Shown here in pieces: positions 5,695 through 23,358 of a stretch of DNA of 35,766 bases (position 1 is the stretch's first letter; every line of letters starts with the position of its first letter). Source of the DNA: Gallionellaceae bacterium (lineage in GTDB: Bacteria > Pseudomonadota > Gammaproteobacteria > Burkholderiales > Gallionellaceae); assembly GCA_003151655.1 (NCBI GenBank), contig PLYB01000275.1, positions 34,320 to 70,085 of the forward strand. The letters run 5' to 3'. Made by a program: the position numbers and the translations under genes. The notes under the pieces were generated by a model. The model made no database searches and was not told the DNA's origin. It was given only the letters and a program-made list of their open reading frames with translations.

Positions 5695-5799
5695 TGCATA
5701 TCTTACAGCGCAGAATTAGCACTGCATACACAGGTTGATCCCGAAATTCAATAAATTCGTGCGCTGTGCAAAAAATAACCAGCAGTGATACTATGGGTC

Positions 5800-6096
5800 A
5801 TGGCTGAAATTAAAGTGTTTGATGACTCATGGCCATTATCCTTAAAAAACGGTAACGGTGTATTGCGCCGTGAAGTTTGGGTAGATGAGCGGGAGCGGGT
5901 AGTGCGCTACAACCTCGCGTACATCAACCACTCGATTTATCGGGACGATAACGGGCGAGTAGTTGGGTATGACAATGCACACGGTCATCATCATCGGCAT
6001 TACATGGGCGTGATTACGCCAGTCAAATTCAGCAGTTTTGAAGACATCGAAGAAAAGTTTCAGGCTGACTGGATTGAGTTTAGGGGCAAAAAATGA
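5800..6096 (+). CDS. Small putative toxin, TumE/DUF6516-like
   Basis: 98-aa ORF starting at the ATG at 5800. It carries the His-rich YDNAHGHHHRHY motif. Its stop overlaps (ATGA) the start of a downstream wHTH gene. The family name is recalled from memory and is not verified. Confidence 0.5.
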   Translation: MAEIKVFDDSWPLSLKNGNGVLRREVWVDERERVVRYNLAYINHSIYRDDNGRVVGYDNAHGHHHRHYMGVITPVKFSSFEDIEEKFQADWIEFRGKK

Positions 6097-6455
6097 AGAC
6101 GACTATCAAAGTGGCAAGCACGGAAGAATTTTTCCAACGCGGCAAAAAAATTGCGAAGCTGGCAGATCAAGGCAAACGCATTCCGCATGAGCGCGTTATC
6201 TCGTTTGAAGACCCGGAAGATTTGGCACGGCTGATTACAACGGCAAAGCTTGTCCTATTTCGTGAAGTAAAGGAATGCCCCGGTTCGATAACCGATTTGT
6301 CGCAACGCTTGCACCGGGATCGCAGCGCCGTAAAGCGTGATATTGATGAACTGGAACGATTCGGCTTGGTGGAAATAGAGGAATTGCCTTTTCCCGGACA
6401 TGGACGTAAAAAAGAAGTTCGTGCTGTTGCCGAGCAAGTGTTGCTGGCTATGTGA
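6093..6455 (+). CDS. Winged-HTH DNA-binding protein, putative cognate antitoxin
   Basis: 120 aa. The segment ...ITDLSQRLHRDRSAVKRDIDELERFGLVE is a MarR/ArsR-like wHTH. Translationally coupled to the upstream small ORF. Confidence 0.6.
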   Translation: MKTTIKVASTEEFFQRGKKIAKLADQGKRIPHERVISFEDPEDLARLITTAKLVLFREVKECPGSITDLSQRLHRDRSAVKRDIDELERFGLVEIEELPFPGHGRKKEVRAVAEQVLLAM

Positions 6456-16435: not shown

Positions 16436-17146
16436 ATGACTTCCGCAACCGTCATCACTAAAATCGCCGCTCTGCGCATTGCGCAAGCCGCGCGCGTTCT
16501 CGCCGACGTTAATGCGGGCGCTTTCGCAGCCAAGCTGGGCGAGCAAATCGGCTTGCCTATTACCGAAGAGAAGCTTGCCAAGGTGACTGTGGCTGACATC
16601 AAGCTCATCCTCTCCGGCGAAGAGACCGTTGATCCTGATGTCGATAGTGCTTCCATCAAGCTGGCGGTGCGCCATCTGTGGGGCGCTTCCGAGGAAGATG
16701 AGAATCTGCCTAAGCCGGCCAAATATGCCGAAGGCGATATGCCCGGCAGCTTGCGCGTTGCTGTTGCGTCTAACACCGAAGAAAATCTGGACGGGCACTT
16801 TGGCTCATGCCCGCGCTTTCTCATTTATCAGGTCGGGCGTAGCGAGATACGCCTGATCGATGTGCGTTCCACCGCCATCAGCGATGATGCCGAAGATAAA
16901 AACGTGGCACGTGCCAATCTCATCAAAGATTGTCAAATCGTTTACGTGCAATCTATCGGTGGCCCTGCCGCAGCCAAAGCAGTGCGCGCCAACATCCATC
17001 CTGTGAAAGCACCGGAGGGTGGCAAAGCGAACATCGCTTTGCAACGTCTGCAAGCCGTACTCGATGCACCTCCGCCCTGGCTTGCCAAAATACTCGGCGT
17101 GGAAGCGAAATCGTTGAGCCGGTTCACGGATACGGAAGAAGAGTAG
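16436..17146 (+). CDS. nifY: NifY/NafY-like FeMo-cofactor-binding protein
   Basis: 236 aa. The N-terminal region resembles the NafY N-domain. The C-terminal core is NifX/NifB-type (RVAVASNTEENLDGHFGSCPRFLIYQV). Confidence 0.8.
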   Translation: MTSATVITKIAALRIAQAARVLADVNAGAFAAKLGEQIGLPITEEKLAKVTVADIKLILSGEETVDPDVDSASIKLAVRHLWGASEEDENLPKPAKYAEGDMPGSLRVAVASNTEENLDGHFGSCPRFLIYQVGRSEIRLIDVRSTAISDDAEDKNVARANLIKDCQIVYVQSIGGPAAAKAVRANIHPVKAPEGGKANIALQRLQAVLDAPPPWLAKILGVEAKSLSRFTDTEEE

Positions 17147-17154
17147 GGGGCAGG

Positions 17155-17433
17155 ATGATCGCCCCCGAGACACTCGAAAGTATCGCCAACGCAACTGCCC
17201 AACAGAGCGAGTTGAATGAAGCCACTCTGGCCGCGTTGAAAAAGACCTGGCCGGATTTGCGTTTTACTTTATGTAATGACGACGACATGCCTGCGCGCCT
17301 GTCGCCCGCATTGAAGCGTGAAAAATTTAACCTCTATCTGGTCAACGGCAGTGAACACTGCCTCAGTCTGACCGACGATCCGCTACAGGCGATTGGGGTT
17401 GTGTTGGCCGAGGTGGATGACGATGCGTTATAG
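17155..17433 (+). CDS. Small nif-cluster-associated protein of unknown function (intact copy A)
   Basis: 92-aa ORF starting 9 nt after the nifY stop (MIAPETLESIAN...MPARLSPALKREKFNLYLVNGSEHCLSLTDD...). Two degraded paralogous copies lie downstream. Confidence 0.7.
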   Translation: MIAPETLESIANATAQQSELNEATLAALKKTWPDLRFTLCNDDDMPARLSPALKREKFNLYLVNGSEHCLSLTDDPLQAIGVVLAEVDDDAL

Positions 17434-17511
17434 CGAAAACAGTCTGGAAATCAATTGATCCAAAGCTTGAATATGCTGTAATACTATTGGCGCGCGTAAA
17501 ATACTCACCAC

Positions 17512-17802
17512 CTACGCCCGCCCCGCCAACGTTTCCATCACGAGCTGAGGATTGCGCTCAACCAGTTGGAGTAACGCCATTGCCGGGCCGTGAGGCTGAC
17601 GGTCGCCGCGTTCCCAATGACGCAGGGTATTCACACTGATATGGCAGCGTGATGCAAACTGTTCCTGAGTCATGCCGGTTTTCTGCCGAATGCCCTTCAC
17701 GTCGGGCACGTGGGGGCGATGTATTACGGCCTCTACCGGCTCGCCTGCAGCATGGGCTATGGCTTGCTCCAAGCCCTCTCGAATACGGTCAAATGCTTTC
17801 AT
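17512..17802 (-). CDS. HTH (Xre/NadS-type) antitoxin
   Basis: 96 aa. ...IRQKTGMTQEQFASRCHISVNTLRHWERGDRQPHGPAMALL is an Xre-type HTH. Its ATG overlaps the stop of the upstream toxin gene. Confidence 0.85.
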   Translation of the reverse strand: MKAFDRIREGLEQAIAHAAGEPVEAVIHRPHVPDVKGIRQKTGMTQEQFASRCHISVNTLRHWERGDRQPHGPAMALLQLVERNPQLVMETLAGRA

Positions 17803-18161
17803 GGGTTTCTCTCCAGTGCTGTAGTGACGAGAGTGTCAACCAAGGTGGCCAGCATATTACGTTCTCTCGCAGTTAAATTCGCTTGTTCATTTTTCGCAAA
17901 CAGGGTTAGCAAGTACAGCGGCAATCGTTCGTCATGAAAGTAGTAAATCACCCGTACGCCGCCGCTTTTACCTCGCCCACCTTTGCCCCAGCGCAACTTA
18001 CGCACCCCACCAGTACCCCGCATGACATCACCAGCCTTGGGATGCTCTGCCAGATAGTCAATGATCCCTTGACGCTCTTCCGCAGACAGATGCTTTTCTG
18101 CAAAAGAGATATAGGCTGGCAATTCAGCGATGGTGTTCAACATTCGGGCATTGTAATCCAT
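17799..18161 (-). CDS. RelE/HigB-superfamily toxin
   Basis: ...GDVMRGTGGVRKLRWGKGGRGKSGGVRVIYYFHDERLPLYLLTLFAKNEQANL is typical of this toxin family. Toxin-first order as in higBA. The start is either ATG 18161 or ATG 18143. The ORF-track extension to 18263 runs antisense into repeat copy B. Confidence 0.8.
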   Translation of the reverse strand: MDYNARMLNTIAELPAYISFAEKHLSAEERQGIIDYLAEHPKAGDVMRGTGGVRKLRWGKGGRGKSGGVRVIYYFHDERLPLYLLTLFAKNEQANLTARERNMLATLVDTLVTTALERNP

Positions 18162-18193
18162 TGGACTAGTTTGGCGCAAAAGATATTTATCGG

Positions 18194-18382
18194 CTACGAC
18201 TCTCCAACGCCGCTGATTCGATGAGCGTGTTGAACGACATGCCAGCGCGCCTGCCGCCCGCATTGAAGCGCGAAAAATTCAATCTCTATCTGGTCAATGG
18301 CAGTGAGCACTGCCTGAGCCTGACCGACGATTCGCTGCAGGCGATTGGGGTGGTGCTGGCAGAGGTGGATGAAGCCGTAGGC
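18194..18382 (+). pseudogene. Degraded copy B of the small nif-associated ORF
   Basis: By eye about 90% nucleotide identity to 17283-17424, with most differences at third codon positions. It lacks the roughly 60-nt segment encoding ATLAALKKTWPDLRFTLCNDD. The original stop is lost through a 1-nt indel relative to copy C. Confidence 0.6.
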
Positions 18383-18454
18383 TACCGTAACTCAGTCTTG
18401 ATCTGTCAAAAACTATCAGACTGTTACTTGTTATTGATCACGAATTGACCATCG

Positions 18455-18699
18455 CTACTCGTCTGCGGCCTGACATGCAGCAGCTATAACATTATCGGCG
18501 ATGAAGTAACCCGATGCGCGCAATTCCAATAAGCTGGGCCGCACACTGGAAATCAGACCACGGCGCCCGCGACCGCAACTTCGTTGAAAACCGTTTGAGG
18601 AATCCAGCATTCGACAAACAAAGCGGGCAACAGACCAAGCTGATCGAGCAATGATAGCGCGATCAGAGGCCCGGAGTTAACCACCGCTCGGTCAAGCAT
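18455..18699 (-). pseudogene. DUF3368-type PIN-like toxin remnant
   Basis: The N-terminal 48 codons (MLDRAVVNSGPLIALSLLDQLGLLPALFVECWIPQTVFNEV...) end in a premature stop. A C-terminal-like fragment (...ELRASGYFIADNVIAAACQAADE) lies in another frame. The total length is far below the full-length size I recall for this family (not verified). Confidence 0.6.
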
Positions 18700-18946
18700 T
18701 CTGGTCAAATTCCATGATCAGCTCATCGTCATCAAGAGATAGCACTGGCACACCGGCGCGCCCGGCAGCAAGGAGAAATTCAACCCGCCCCATATCGCAA
18801 AGTTTACCGGCCTTGCCGGAACTCAAACGGCCAACCTCGAACAGCTTCAGCGCCAGCATGAACTTAGCCTCGCTCGCCAGCGATTCTGGTGAAACTCCGG
18901 GAGATGCCAGCGCATCTATAGGTAATTCAAGCATAACGGAATTCAT
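18692..18946 (-). CDS. UPF0175 family antitoxin
   Basis: 84 aa. ...EAKFMLALKLFEVGRLSSGKAGKLCDMGRVEFLLAAGRAGVPV is the UPF0175 signature. Its stop overlaps the ATG of the toxin remnant. Confidence 0.8.
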   Translation of the reverse strand: MNSVMLELPIDALASPGVSPESLASEAKFMLALKLFEVGRLSSGKAGKLCDMGRVEFLLAAGRAGVPVLSLDDDELIMEFDQNA

Positions 18947-19039
18947 TAGTCAGCCCTCAGGAAAAATCATCGCAACGTGTTCAATTATGGCATAACACGC
19001 CGATAATTAGTTCACATGCCGTTGTTGCAGATCAGATCA

Positions 19040-19297
19040 ATGAACGTCATACCCGCCAACGCCATCGCTCAGCAGGGCGTGTTGAACAAAGCTACTCTGG
19101 TTGCGTAGAAAAAGATCTGGCCGGATTTGCGTTTTACTTTATGCAATGACGACGACATGCCCGCGCGCCTGCCAGCCCGCATTGAAGCGCGAAAAATTTA
19201 ATCTGTATCTGGTCAACGGTAGTGAACATTACCTTAGCCTGACCGACGATCCGCAAGAGGCGATTGGAGTGGTGCTGGCATAGGTGGATGAGGCATA
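19040..19297 (+). pseudogene. Degraded near-full-length copy C of the small nif-associated ORF
   Basis: Starts with an ATG at 19040 and aligns along the whole of copy A. It has an in-frame TAG at codon 23 (19106-19108) and a 1-nt insertion in the MPARL region. Confidence 0.75.
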
Positions 19298-19499
19298 GGC
19301 TATCAGAATTCTATTTCTGATGTTACCGCCTGATTTTTACGCAATTTAAAATTGAGTTGCGGGATAGCAGACAGTCGCGATGGGCGAGAAATAACCGAAA
19401 GCCGTTATTTTTCTCTGTAATAGGTTGCTCAATAGTTGCTGTTCACCAAGTACAGCTACCGAGACGAAGTGAACGTTTAAAGTTAATTGGGGGGCATAT

Positions 19500-20099
19500 T
19501 CATTGCTGGCTAGTTTTCGCCGGCCCAAACAGAGCCAGCATTTTGGAAATGTCCTCGTCCAGTTTAACTTTGCTTGCATCATCTGTTTTCATCCACATCT
19601 CTTGAAAGCGCATGGCATCGCCACCGAATAACACTGTCTGGTTGCGGATGCGATCTCCCTTATTCGGTAAAACTTGGGTTTCTGATCCGCCTGCGTAGTG
19701 GGCTAATACCTCGGTATCCAGAACTACAGGAGTAACTCCTTCCGGATAGATGCGAACACCGAAAATACTTGAACCAAACGTACTATCGTTGTCTCCAATA
19801 TTCCAGATTCGCCAAATGTAATGCGTTCCAATGTAACCATGCCACTGCACCAGATTGCCTTCAGCGTAGTCGTGTTTGTCGTCGTCATACCAGACAATTG
19901 CTCTGTTATCTGGCAATAGCACAACCAGCATCATCTGACCGTCATCTCCAAGCACAGAGTAGGACACGGGTGTAGTAGGCGACTTCCATGGAACGATAAT
20001 TTGGCTTTTGATCCCGATGATGATTATGGCAAGCACGATAACCCCCATAATTGCTTTGCCAATCCATGCTGATACTTTGCTGACGATGGTAGATAGCAT
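19500..20099 (-). CDS. Membrane-anchored hypothetical protein
   Basis: ATG at 20099 follows GAGGTG. One N-terminal TM helix (AIMGVIVLAIIIIGI). No recognisable domain. Lies in the AT-richer region. Confidence 0.6.
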   Translation of the reverse strand: MLSTIVSKVSAWIGKAIMGVIVLAIIIIGIKSQIIVPWKSPTTPVSYSVLGDDGQMMLVVLLPDNRAIVWYDDDKHDYAEGNLVQWHGYIGTHYIWRIWNIGDNDSTFGSSIFGVRIYPEGVTPVVLDTEVLAHYAGGSETQVLPNKGDRIRNQTVLFGGDAMRFQEMWMKTDDASKVKLDEDISKMLALFGPAKTSQQ

Positions 20100-20152
20100 T
20101 GTTGTCACCTCGACGATGTCCAACAGTTATTGGCACCCAACATCATTGCACC

Positions 20153-20620
20153 TTACGCGGATTCATCATTGCGATCGATTTTATCTAGGAAGCGCTGCAT
20201 TGCTGGAGTTATTGGCTTTGAAAAACCAAACTTTCCATAGGCACTCTTGAAACTTGGCCAAATTTCAGGAAGCAAGCCGCGTGACCTAAAGTATGGATGC
20301 AACCAAATCCAGTCTAATTCATATTTACTTGAATTTATAGCAGTGTTTCGTTCACGAAAACAGCATGCACCGACATACCGTCCTTGATCTATGAACAAGT
20401 ATGCCTCATATGGAACGAACCAATCATCTCCGGGACACTCGGCAGCTTCAAACTGAATCGCGCCCCTCCTCCGTTCACGCAAGAAGTAAGTCGCAAAGCG
20501 CTCAACTTGTTTTTTGAGCATTTTAGACGAATTTGGATTGACACATTTTAGCTTTGTACTCGTAGTAAATTTTGCCTTAGGCAGAATAATCGAGTAATAG
20601 AGCGTTTCACGATCAGTCAT
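20153..20620 (-). CDS. Hypothetical protein, possible GNAT-like fold
   Basis: 155 aa. WIWLHPYFRSRGLL resembles the GNAT acetyl-CoA-binding R/Q-x-x-G-x-G/A segment. The assignment is weak. Confidence 0.45.
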   Translation of the reverse strand: MTDRETLYYSIILPKAKFTTSTKLKCVNPNSSKMLKKQVERFATYFLRERRRGAIQFEAAECPGDDWFVPYEAYLFIDQGRYVGACCFRERNTAINSSKYELDWIWLHPYFRSRGLLPEIWPSFKSAYGKFGFSKPITPAMQRFLDKIDRNDESA

Positions 20621-20638
20621 AGGTGACCTACTTTGATA

Positions 20639-21703
20639 TCAAGGTAGGTAAGAAAAATCTCTGCACTGAGATAATCGCCCCCAAGACTCATCTTCTTCCA
20701 TGCATGCTTGCAAACTTGATGATCTTGTATATTCCTCAGACTTTGTCTCAGTTGAAGTAGGTGCCCTATATCGTGCAGAGCATTCATCAACTTTTTTATT
20801 TTTTTGTATATTAGCGAAATCAGCCTCGCCGCGAGAGTATGCCACCAACATCGCCGAAGGTTTGAGATTTGGTCTGCTAAGTAAAAAAGTGTTTATACGG
20901 TCAAGCTCAGCCTCGGATTTTGACAGCAATTCCTTAATCATCACTCTCCCTTTCTCAATGCTTTCTTTATAAGGTGGATAGCGGTCCATCTTTTCGCGCT
21001 CAACTTGAGATGAAATTGCTGCATCAAATTGTGCACTTTGTTTCACATATGCTGCAAGCCCTTCTTTTGCAACAGCACTACAATATGACGCTTTTAACTC
21101 CGCTTCATTAGGCATTTGGAATTGCTGTACTATTGGAGATTGGTGATCGGTTCCCTGAGCGGGGGAAGTAGGCGCGACTGGAGCAACTGTGCCGCTCAGT
21201 TCCTTGAGTTTATCTACCACTTGTGCCCCATCACATTTTTTGCAGGGCAGGGATTCCGAATACACGACCTTGTTATCAAAAATGTTCTGAATACTTAATG
21301 CGAGATAATATATTCCTTCTTGCTTAGTGATATTCGCCGTTGCAATCAACTCAGCCTGAAATGCAATTGCGATATTCTGCATACATTTTGTTTCGTCACA
21401 TTCTTTATGGGCAGTATTGCGATTTTCCTTCATGAATATCTCATGTGCTTTTTGTGAAACTTGTTCGCCAGAATAAACATCATATTTTCGTTGAAGCCCC
21501 TTAACTAGGGCTGTCTCCATTGCTCCAGTCAGGTTTTTATCCTCATATGGGATACGCAGGGGCATGAGAACGAGTCGCTCTTTTGTCGACTCATCTGTCT
21601 GGTGCTTGTTTTTGGATGCGGCTTGAGACTGTAGGGGGATTGCACTCAAGCAGAGGGTGACGATGACAATACCGAACAGATTATGCAGCTTTAATGTGCG
21701 CAT
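20639..21703 (-). CDS. Secreted hypothetical protein
   Basis: ATG at 21703 gives MRTLKLHNLFGIVIVTLCLSAIPLQSQAAS, a signal peptide. Cys-containing N-domain. No recognised family. Confidence 0.6.
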   Translation of the reverse strand: MRTLKLHNLFGIVIVTLCLSAIPLQSQAASKNKHQTDESTKERLVLMPLRIPYEDKNLTGAMETALVKGLQRKYDVYSGEQVSQKAHEIFMKENRNTAHKECDETKCMQNIAIAFQAELIATANITKQEGIYYLALSIQNIFDNKVVYSESLPCKKCDGAQVVDKLKELSGTVAPVAPTSPAQGTDHQSPIVQQFQMPNEAELKASYCSAVAKEGLAAYVKQSAQFDAAISSQVEREKMDRYPPYKESIEKGRVMIKELLSKSEAELDRINTFLLSRPNLKPSAMLVAYSRGEADFANIQKNKKVDECSARYRAPTSTETKSEEYTRSSSLQACMEEDESWGRLSQCRDFSYLP

Positions 21704-22006
21704 GTGTTTTGGCTTTTGTTGGTTGTGATTCCCCATCCTCGACAGGGCTGGGGTTATTCTAACCGAAACCGCCAAGATTGGAAGGCGGGCGGTTGTTCTG
21801 CTTCGTGCACAATCCCGAACTTCACGGTATCAAATAGCACGCCATAAAGCAGCCTTTCCCCATCGGCAGTTCATGGACGACAGCAGAAGTTTAAGCTTAA
21901 TTATGCAACGCCGTAAAGCAGTCACTCGCGACTATTTTCATGTCGCGTTAGAAAGAAACTGCCAGCCAGACGACATCGGAGCGACAAGGCATAAATGCAG
22001 CACCGG

Positions 22007-22207
22007 TTACTTTTCTTTCTTTTTCCACTCGTCCGTCAGCATCCCGGCGAATCCCCAGTCTTCTTCATTGATTTCCTGAATAACGATGTGCGTGTGTTCC
22101 GGTTTTTTGCCGAGAACGCGTACCAGTGTATCTGTGACCTCTTTGACTAACTGGGACTTTTGTTCTCGTGTCGCGCCCTTGGTGATTTGAATATTTACGT
22201 ATGGCAT
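22007..22207 (-). CDS. 4-oxalocrotonate tautomerase family protein
   Basis: 66 aa. MPYVNIQITKGATREQKSQLVKEVTDTLVRVLGK has the catalytic Pro1 and the family signature. Confidence 0.85.
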   Translation of the reverse strand: MPYVNIQITKGATREQKSQLVKEVTDTLVRVLGKKPEHTHIVIQEINEEDWGFAGMLTDEWKKKEK

Positions 22208-23290: not shown

Positions 23291-23358
23291 CCCCGAGAAT
23301 GCGTACCAGTGTATCAGTAACCTCTTTGACTAACTGCGACTCCTGCTCTCGTGTTGCA
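23291..23358 (-). pseudogene. Fragment of a second tautomerase gene
   Basis: About 85% identical by eye to 22109-22175. It encodes ...ATREQESQLVKEVTDTLVRILGE, matching residues 13-35 of the intact tautomerase. It has no start codon and sits directly upstream of, and in frame with, the lipoprotein TTG start. Confidence 0.65.

Follow-up and report, generated by a model that had tools for sequence, protein, structure and literature searches.

The window analysed here, a stretch of 35,766 nt from the genome of a Gallionella-type iron bacterium (family Gallionellaceae), carries a nitrogenase operon (nifHDKT-fdx-nifY-DUF6129), at the 3' end of which the last gene is present in three direct-repeat copies, separated by small toxin-antitoxin (TA) units on the opposite strand. 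The features of this region, in order, are as follows.

16436-17146, plus strand: nifY, encoding a NifX/NafY-type FeMo-cofactor carrier (Pfam DIMCO_N and Nitro_FeMo-Co), conserved and anchoring the array on its upstream side
17155-17433, plus strand: DUF6129 copy A, intact, 92 aa, directly after nifY in operon context
17434-17509, no strand: flank A, a unique 76-nt segment from the copy A stop to the TA1 unit
17512-17802, minus strand: TA1 antitoxin, intact, 96 aa, HTH_3 / MqsA C-terminal-like, NadS-like (Pfam and NCBIfam)
17799-18161, minus strand: TA1 toxin, intact, 120 aa, RelE/HigB-like (PF06296), the upstream gene of the pair
18204-18382, plus strand: DUF6129 copy B, displaced, with homology to full-length copies from codon 10/11 onwards
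18383-18454, no strand: flank B, 96% identical to the flank of copy 1 in the related locus L033
18455-18708, minus strand: TA2 toxin remnant, DUF3368, PIN-like (Pfam), with a 244-nt deletion and loss of frame
18692-18946, minus strand: TA2 antitoxin, intact, 84 aa, UPF0175 (Pfam, 64 bits)
18947-19052, no strand: leader C, the upstream region of TA2, 98% identical to L033
19040-19298, plus strand: DUF6129 copy C, a displaced pseudogene with a new start (MNVIP, ATG at 19040)
19299-19465, no strand: flank C, common to copy 2 of L033 and the single-copy locus L036
19500-21775, minus strand: a lower-GC trio of uncharacterised genes (207, 155 and 378 aa), filling the gap up to the ancestral neighbour
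22007-22207, minus strand: a 4-oxalocrotonate tautomerase-family gene (Pfam), the ancestral convergent neighbour of DUF6129

The ORF following nifY, which is itself syntenic in all relatives, belongs to Pfam family DUF6129 (PF19624; 47.7 bits against a gathering cut-off of 23.6). This family is mentioned in only one paper, has no PDB relative by sequence or by fold and has a confidently predicted structure with a pLDDT of 84. A first-pass annotation of the window had claimed that this ORF recurs twice downstream, and a mechanical search for direct repeats followed by alignment bore this out, relating 17282-17420 to 18234-18372 (90%) and to 19153-19291, and 17184-17301 to 19054-19171 (86%); the repeats flanking the cassettes measure approximately 180-245 bp. 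Copy B lacks codons 1-10 in the alignment and, in agreement with the in-frame loss of about 21 codons reported earlier, also codons 22-43 (66 nt), with the gap lying between short ACGA repeats. Its stop was removed by a 1-nt indel, which leaves a 75-aa ORF (18221-18448) that at 24.3 bits still scores above the PF19624 cut-off. Copy C indeed has an ATG of its own, in-frame TAG codons, two in number (19106-19108 and 19281-19283) ahead of the native stop at 19296-19298, and a frameshift, caused by an extra A at 19174 (+1); moreover, its invariant Cys69 is changed to Tyr. Intact 87-aa versions of copy C are found elsewhere (P0022, P0029), and the intact C-type protein from L033 reaches 44 bits against PF19624. 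The 3' sequence which B and C were noted to share, and which A lacks, is the family-typical C-terminus (VDEA-stop), making A the odd one out with an ending, VDDDAL-stop, that is unique among 120 homologues.

The three copies differ from each other by 10-13% at the nucleotide level. Between A and B, 14 of the 137 nt of codons 44-89 differ, consistent with the 90% identity first estimated by eye, with a dS of 0.49 and a dN/dS of 0.06, and the pairwise values over all three copies (dS 0.44-0.51, dN/dS 0.06-0.10) substantiate by calculation the proposed divergence under coding selection. Since copy B has no start of its own, this synonymous-biased divergence predates its displacement, which implies that the copies began as separate working alleles. 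Judged from these substitution patterns, the copies diverged while they were functional, most likely having been alleles of different relatives.

Each of the two intervals between the copies holds a single TA unit and nothing else. The A-B interval was described as filled by a complete higBA-like module, and it does contain an intact RelE/HTH pair, of which toxin and antitoxin overlap by 4 nt and score 32.3 bits against PF06296 (cut-off 27) and 37.3 bits against HTH_3, respectively. With two adjacent, overlapping small genes and these family matches, TA1 is, as predicted from sequence, a type II toxin-antitoxin pair. Homologues of the TA1 toxin with 88-95% amino acid identity occur in unrelated contexts, and none of the close TA1 homologues elsewhere adjoins DUF6129; nucleotide homology to these relatives is confined to 17510 to approximately 18205, from the antitoxin stop to a point some 45 nt before the start of the toxin gene. 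The UPF0175 antitoxin and broken DUF3368 toxin that were assigned to the B-C interval were found there as well, by Pfam and by the 244-nt deletion relative to L033. As the intact DUF3368 gene (162 aa) is present only in L033 (4084-4572), TA2 is not a type II pair with both genes intact in the window. An exact look-up of the UPF0175 protein, aimed at an outside source of TA2, returned only contigs of the window's own population, and the nearest match to the TA2 toxin in 150 family genomes has 65% amino acid identity and lies at a non-nif site. Elsewhere in the window, a TumE-like pair located after rnfH has no flanking duplicates.

Around these units, flank A has no match in any fetched locus. 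The last bases of leader C supply the new ATG of copy C, the junction with DUF6129 homology being situated at approximately 19050-19053. Comparison of flanks A, B and C with each other, and of leaders B and C, revealed no similarity beyond chance, which speaks against a common cassette scaffold or att-like ends, and a scan of 16900-19700 for consensus promoters and terminators gave nothing above chance. The trio downstream of flank C has a GC content of 41-46% compared to approximately 52% in its surroundings, shows no Pfam or NCBIfam match and is missing from L019, L033 and L037. The inserted block extends rightwards to 21991, its edge being marked by the tautomerase gene.

Related loci display this site in several states. 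In L037-L039 the tautomerase gene begins 13 nt after the DUF6129 stop; the empty site that had been predicted thus exists. In several genomes of the same genus, the next matched gene after DUF6129 is a homologue of orf356, which in the window lies beyond the tautomerase gene. L036 is a single-copy locus carrying flank C. Strains with fewer cassettes, also anticipated, are represented by L033-L035, which possess TA2 and not TA1. In L033 and L034, nifY is followed by an intact copy 1, an intact DUF3368/UPF0175 pair, an intact copy 2 with the MNVIP start, about 1 kb of other DNA, a copy 3 that runs from codon 32 on the ancestral flank, and the tautomerase gene. The window contains the same B/TA2/C block, copy B with flank B being the positional counterpart of L033 copy 1, plus copy A and TA1 on the nifY side. 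Related genomes therefore differ in the number and kind of their modules, from none in L037 to TA2 and a module X in L033 and TA1 and TA2 in the window. The newest intact copy adjoins nifY, and the ancestral 3' end, in L033 copy 3, adjoins the old neighbour. Array-bearing and empty-site genomes are both present in metagenomes 3300050132 and 3300037156.

That the arrangement results from collapsed or chimeric repeats in a metagenome-assembled genome is a possibility to which we give practically no weight. The genome, a draft in 354 contigs, is 80% complete, which would favour such an error; however, the same arrangement recurs with 99.6-100% identity in at least six contigs from independent metagenome assemblies, which shows that it is not an assembly artefact, contigs obtained from several independent samples and with several assemblers are the same over 8.4 kb, and copies that are 10-13% different are too divergent for mis-joining.

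In a survey of 300 Gallionellaceae genomes, all 83 other DUF6129-bearing genomes had a single DUF6129 match, and each of 39 other metagenome loci likewise held one copy. Relatives vary in what follows DUF6129, with Tag glycosylase, porin, Crp-like, HD-GYP and GGDEF genes encountered there; the suggestion that TA genes recurrently neighbour DUF6129 in the family was checked and ruled out, with other genes at that position in the sampled relatives and in every one of the 39 metagenome loci. These counts bear on the alternative put forward in the first-pass annotation, an old tandem triplication of DUF6129 whose copies were long kept, were later colonised by unrelated TA loci and, for B and C, decayed recently. 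A second copy can be maintained, as the two intact copies of L033 (dN/dS 0.08) illustrate, but the triplication is disfavoured because the divergence among the copies (dS of about 0.5) exceeds that of the lineage split (nifY dS of 0.28 between window and L033) and because the gene is single-copy throughout the family genomes. Moreover, the empty site is common to distant relatives, which identifies it as the ancestral state, each interval is occupied by one TA unit only, none of the displaced copies retains its 5' end, and TA2 shows approximately 99.4% identity between lineages that otherwise differ by 5-12%. We regard this alternative as very unlikely; the empty and intermediate states in relatives support a serial record of insertions, as first proposed, over simple old paralogy.

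The near-identity of TA2 is one of several signs of recombination at the locus. Between window and L033, only 3 mismatches occur in the 487 nt of 18566-19052, and a single one in the 252 nt of UPF0175, whereas the bodies of copies B and C adjoining TA2 differ by 12-13%. Positional counterparts (B and L033 copy 1, C and L033 copy 2) differ as much as copies that do not correspond in position, so that gene conversion must be invoked. In a tree of 50 DUF6129 segments, the array copies fall in one narrow clade together with the single-copy loci L036 and L037, with support values of 35-92%. Inspection of site patterns revealed reticulation, with variable sites forming a mosaic that has no clean breakpoints, and given this mosaic and the poorly resolved tree the donor lineages cannot be named; no donor genome with A, flank A and TA1 in a single-copy arrangement was found. 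In addition, contigs L091 and L092 contain, in this order, TA2, leader C, a hybrid of the copy 2 5' part and the copy 1 3' part, flank B and the 3' end of DUF3368. From its gene order, this contig reads as a circular permutation of the TA2 unit, as would be generated by a circle or a tandem amplification; alternatively, the assembler may have formed a chimera where 76 nt are identical.

A second alternative is that each TA unit inserted in situ with a long target duplication of about 240 bp of the resident DUF6129, the copies having later diverged or been converted by foreign alleles. The cargo is an addiction module with no mobility gene among the ORFs scanned, the direct repeats are longer than 30 bp and align to the one copy in the empty locus L037, and the boundaries of the TA1 unit are tight, all of which are in line with such an insertion. 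Conversely, A and B are by their dS and dN/dS far from near-identical, and TA1 is missing from the L033 lineage, the split from which corresponds to the nifY dS given above. Nor can later purifying selection explain the divergence, B having been startless since its displacement, and A possesses a different C-terminus and a 76-nt flank without a match. We therefore hold this explanation to be improbable.

The junctions leave some room for a third alternative. The B junction (18204/5) and the C junction (approximately 19050) coincide within about 3 nt, at the motif GCCAACGCC of codon 10/11, despite unrelated leaders; random illegitimate joining does not predict this, which hints at a preferred site. 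Site-specific integration, the mechanism to which the pattern was initially likened, would accordingly involve small circular cassettes (DUF6129 from codon 11 to the stop, flank, TA pair and leader), a recombinase encoded elsewhere, a fixed site at codon 10/11 and promoter-proximal entry. The newest copy is the closest to the operon promoter, the hybrid contig equals the expected product of an excised circle, and the copy differences are mostly synonymous, like those of the icd segment carried by e14. On the other hand, the junction of L033 copy 3, one of the three, lies at codon 32; in other respects the cassette ends show no relationship to each other, with no shared sequence, inverted repeat or att-like element; the crossover in the hybrid contig is near codon 76, within homology, instead of at codon 10; and relatives of TA1 elsewhere occur without DUF6129 flanks. 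Each import covers almost the complete gene, either from codon 11 to the stop or in its entirety, and not just a 3' part as had been suggested. The remark that no integrase or transposase is visible holds: no recombinase, integrase or transposase was present among the ORFs scanned, whether in 17434-22000 or elsewhere in the window. Taken together, we consider site-specific integration unlikely.

Our best reading, preferred over site-specific integration and old triplication and held with reasonable though not high confidence, is that the 3' end of the operon is a displacement array built serially by homology-anchored recombination, without a dedicated recombinase. The ancestral state would have been a single DUF6129 gene converging on the tautomerase gene, into which DNA from related Gallionellaceae was repeatedly recombined. 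Each incoming piece would have carried its own DUF6129 allele and a small downstream module, here an opposite-strand TA pair, with one joint in the highly conserved nif/DUF6129 homology and the other within the resident DUF6129, at codon 10/11 twice and at codon 32 once. Every such event would place a complete new copy beside nifY and move the older copy downstream without its start, where it would then decay, as seen in the internal deletion and lost stop of B and in the stops and frameshift of C. Each cassette would thereby lie between a newer copy and an older one in decay. For the route we infer a homology-facilitated illegitimate first joint, followed by homologous spread. Once formed, the DUF6129-TA-DUF6129 unit would have two gene copies serving as homology arms, by which homologous recombination could move the cassette between lineages, convert copies, and delete, loop out or amplify the cassette. 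The TA modules plausibly have a stabilising role, in that repeat-to-repeat deletion of the cargo would be punished by the toxin and the cargo would thus persist. As a more tentative extension, which we consider possible but rather doubtful, a TA cassette between two copies of a conserved operon-terminal gene might constitute a self-sufficient mobile unit, the copies acting as arms for entry by ordinary recombination into any relative having the gene, the incoming copy preserving the function of the target and the TA pair penalising deletion. If true, this would provide a general recombinase-free route for the spread of addiction modules.

The natural intermediates described here illustrate how small addiction modules may come to be stacked at the end of an essential, highly conserved operon without a transposase or integrase, and suggest that the leftover gene copies, far from being inert, function as recombination arms. 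This bears on the spread and persistence of chromosomal TA systems, on how stable the nif clusters of environmental iron oxidisers are and on annotation practice, namely the reading of 'pseudogene repeats' beside TA and defence genes. As populations with no, one and two cassettes share the same samples, the proposal is directly testable.

Several known systems resemble parts of this locus. The prophages e14 and phage 21 integrate into E. coli icd by means of an integrase and a short core site and bring along a replacement gene end. There too, the displaced part of the protein-coding target is replaced by a version from the insert that has diverged, mostly at synonymous positions, and the old part becomes a pseudogene; unlike these prophages, the units described here are about 0.9 kb in size and have no integrase among the scanned ORFs, and their junctions are not all at one site. 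In integrons, TA cassettes are thought to protect arrays from deletion. The present locus shares with integron arrays the small cassettes, some of which are TA pairs, stacked by a promoter-proximal entry point, but its separators are copies of a protein-coding gene, no IntI was seen, and inspection of the flanks by eye showed no attC-like sites. Restriction-modification units insert with long target duplications (Nobusato et al. 2000; Furuta, Abe and Kobayashi 2010, PMC2853133) and likewise are small addiction-type units without a mobility gene, bounded by long direct repeats that correspond to one copy at the empty site of a relative. Here, however, the repeats of approximately 240 bp are 10-13% diverged with a strong synonymous bias and are thus no recent duplicates of a single target; furthermore, the insertions form a serial stack and the cargo is a TA pair. 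[quoted passage not shown] 2017, PMC5361080), and, as cited in that paper, for Rhs/CdiA proteins, where 'C-terminal displacement' leaves orphan modules (Jackson et al. 2009). Like those arrays, the locus has a conserved upstream anchor with the newest complete module beside it and older modules downstream cut at their 5' side (B, C and L033 copy 3), no recombinase among the ORFs scanned, a module number that differs between related strains, and repeats that permit later homologous exchange. It differs from them in being anchored by a nitrogenase operon and in repeating a gene that does not encode a toxin and is functionally unconnected with the cargo. That cargo is an independent opposite-strand type II TA pair, whereas in those arrays the variable module consists of the toxic tip of the repeated gene together with its immunity gene. 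The layout as such is already known from toxin and restriction-gene loci; here it is formed by the nif gene DUF6129 and TA cassettes.

The first-pass annotation had noticed one intact and two decayed tandem copies of a small nif-associated gene; repeat finding and alignment confirmed two further copies besides copy A, all of the DUF6129 family, arranged as follows.

Left part of the window: rnfCDGEH, a TumE-like toxin-antitoxin (TA) pair, draT and nifHDK-nifT-ferredoxin-nifY
17155-17433: copy A, a 92-aa ORF directly 3' of nifY, with a Pfam DUF6129 match
A-B interval: intact RelE (PF06296)/HTH pair (TA1), minus strand, and a unique flank of 76 nt
18204-18382: copy B
B-C interval: intact UPF0175 antitoxin and a DUF3368 toxin broken by a 244-nt deletion (TA2), a unique flank and a 106-nt leader
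19040-19298: copy C
Right of the array region: a TonB-dependent receptor operon, modE and modABC

The complete module between A and B and the broken one between B and C thus stand as first described, and so does the decay of the copies. By alignment, DUF6129 homology in copy B begins at 18204 (codon 10/11); the in-frame gap reported earlier comprises codons 22-43 (66 nt) and is bounded by short ACGA repeats, and the stop is gone through a 1-nt indel. Copy C has its own, new ATG at 19040, reads MNVIP, and shows DUF6129 homology from codon 10/11 onward; its in-frame stop proved to be two TAG codons (19106 and 19281), its frameshift is an extra A at 19174, and the family-invariant Cys69 is Tyr. 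The 3' sequence common to B and C and absent from A is the normal C-terminus of the family, copy A carrying an unusual end. No similarity was found among the flanks and leaders within the array. Directly after rnfH lies the other TA-like pair (5785-6455; TumE toxin family and an HVO_A0114/HTH protein), and no gene duplicates flank it.

The AlphaFold model of DUF6129 (32 sequences) is confident (pLDDT 84), with two N-terminal helices and a four-stranded sheet, and Cys40, His68 and Cys69 are invariant. The displaced copies lack most of helix 1 of this model, and B also helix 2, strand 1 and Cys40. No PDB relative was found by sequence or Foldseek; a metal- or cluster-related role is only a guess.

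At least six contigs, drawn from separate ENA, JGI and Logan assemblies, carry the 8.4 kb array stretch at 99.6-100% identity; the structure is therefore stable in a natural population, and for practical purposes an assembly artefact is excluded. DUF6129 gives one match each in 14 of 40 relatives and is single-copy in all 83 of the 300 Gallionellaceae genomes that carry it, the present genome being the sole one with more, and at 39 of 39 metagenome loci, where the order nifT-fdx-nifY-DUF6129 is conserved. An old tandem triplication later colonised by TA loci, the alternative proposed at first, is disfavoured by this single-copy state. The position after nifY is strictly syntenic in Gallionellaceae and allied metagenome contigs. 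The gene 3' of DUF6129 varies by genome (Tag glycosylase, porin, Crp-like, HD-GYP, GGDEF, DUF1330-like, modE or modA), making this a variable junction; across relatives and metagenome loci, TA genes are not its usual tenants.

The empty site and a state with fewer cassettes, both anticipated, were recovered. In comparison loci L037-L039 a convergent tautomerase gene (window 22007-22207) lies 13 nt past the DUF6129 stop, followed by an orf356 homologue, modE and modABC. Loci L033/L034 carry TA2 without TA1 and have three DUF6129 copies, in the order nifY, intact 90-aa copy, flank B, intact DUF3368/UPF0175, leader C, copy 2 (an intact 87-aa C-type gene), flank C, ~1 kb with two unknown ORFs, and copy 3, which begins at codon 32 and adjoins the tautomerase gene on the ancestral flank. 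The two ORFs (L033 5281-6242; plus strand, 53 and 129 aa) have no Pfam match and form a small unknown cassette that takes up a slot like those of the TA pairs. Locus L036 has one full-length copy, then flank C, then other DNA. Empty-site and array-bearing genomes occur in the same metagenomes.

Beyond copy C, the window carries three minus-strand genes (19500-21775; ORFs of 207, 155 and 378 aa; GC lower, 41-46%) without a Pfam or NCBIfam match and absent from L019, L033, L036 and L037. They take the place of the unknown cassette and copy 3 remnant of L033; the ancestral DUF6129 3' end beside the tautomerase gene has thus been lost from the window. An internal tautomerase fragment (22110-22174, 65 nt) recurs at 23293-23357 with 88% identity, just upstream of orf356, so that this lipoprotein-like gene is bracketed by tautomerase sequence. 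The second fragment, not found in empty-site L037, may be another displacement scar at this locus.

Divergence under coding selection, suspected by eye, is upheld: A, B and C differ pairwise at 14-17 of 137 nt (codons 44-89), with dS 0.44-0.51 and dN/dS 0.06-0.10. On the scale of nifY, dS from the window is 0.28 to L033, 0.40 to L036 and 1.1 to L037. Since B has been without a start codon since its displacement, the synonymous-biased A/B divergence arose while both were working genes, and therefore as separate alleles in different genomes; L033 lacks TA1, which makes a duplication in situ upon TA1 insertion too young for a dS of 0.49. In the tree all array copies fall, with weak support, in one narrow clade with single-copy L036 and L037.

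Window and L033 differ at only 3 of 487 positions across 18566-19052 (DUF3368 5' part, UPF0175, leader C), and flank C shows 98% identity; divergence is 12-13% in the adjoining gene bodies of B and C, 3-9% in the nif genes and ~11% in the tautomerase gene. The TA2 block was thus exchanged between these lineages long after their split. The identity breaks coincide with the DUF6129 copies, as expected if recombination uses these copies as arms and other alleles convert the copies themselves, and the variable sites of eight copies form a mosaic. Contigs L091/L092 read DUF3368 5' part, UPF0175, leader C, a hybrid copy (5' part copy 2, 3' part copy 1, switch near codon 76), flank B and DUF3368 3' part: 1102 nt of a ~1167-nt unit in circular permutation. 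Judged by this order, they would be the product expected of recombination between copies 1 and 2, either an excised circle or a tandem amplification.

TA1 homologues with 88-95% aa identity sit in unrelated places, e.g. defence islands or between hemC and thiC. Their nucleotide homology to TA1 is limited to the stretch between the antitoxin stop (17510) and a point ~45 nt before the toxin start (~18205), where DUF6129 codon 10/11 takes over, microhomology at the joint amounting to a few bases at most. Native upstream DNA is thus confined to 18162-18205, beyond which homologues L041 and L042 continue differently, so that the copy B remnant must either contain the TA1 promoter or provide one. 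Among 150 family genomes, the closest relative of TA2 reaches 65% identity and occupies a non-nif site. We infer that the TA pairs stabilise the array by penalising repeat-to-repeat deletion, which fits the older module TA2, where the toxin is lost and the antitoxin survives.

Next to the conserved operon stands an intact copy; behind it come older copies, truncated at the 5' end and each accompanied by a module of its own, and the ancestral 3' end closes the series. This layout matches the sequential-displacement arrays of T6SS effector-immunity modules (PMC5361080) and, as far as that paper relates them, Rhs/CdiA loci, and its outward form matches the "insertion with long target duplication" of restriction-modification units (PMC2853133). 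On the strength of this match we favour, as on balance probable, import followed by homologous recombination. A relative's DUF6129 would have been imported along with its downstream TA module, with one joint formed in the nif/DUF6129 homology and a second within the resident gene, and the resulting repeats would then have recombined with each other. Our chief doubt concerns the junctions of B and C, which lie within ~3 nt of each other and so keep alive a site-preferring process. We consider such a process unlikely, and the serial site-specific insertion of the first-pass annotation is not borne out, as the scanned ORFs yielded no recombinase, the cassette ends do not resemble each other, one junction lies at codon 32 and the hybrid contigs cross over near codon 76. 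Exactly at the junction motif (GCCAACGCCAACGCC), the intact C-type copy of L033 carries a tandem duplication of GCCAAC (L033 4925-4945), which suggests that this motif is prone to slippage.

Arrays of this kind are already known from T6SS/Rhs displacement and restriction-modification insertion. This locus differs in its cargo, which consists of type II TA pairs on the opposite strand, and in its anchor, a nitrogenase operon's last gene with no functional relation to that cargo. It is also distinctive in that empty, intermediate, hybrid and two-cassette states are available from populations that co-occur.
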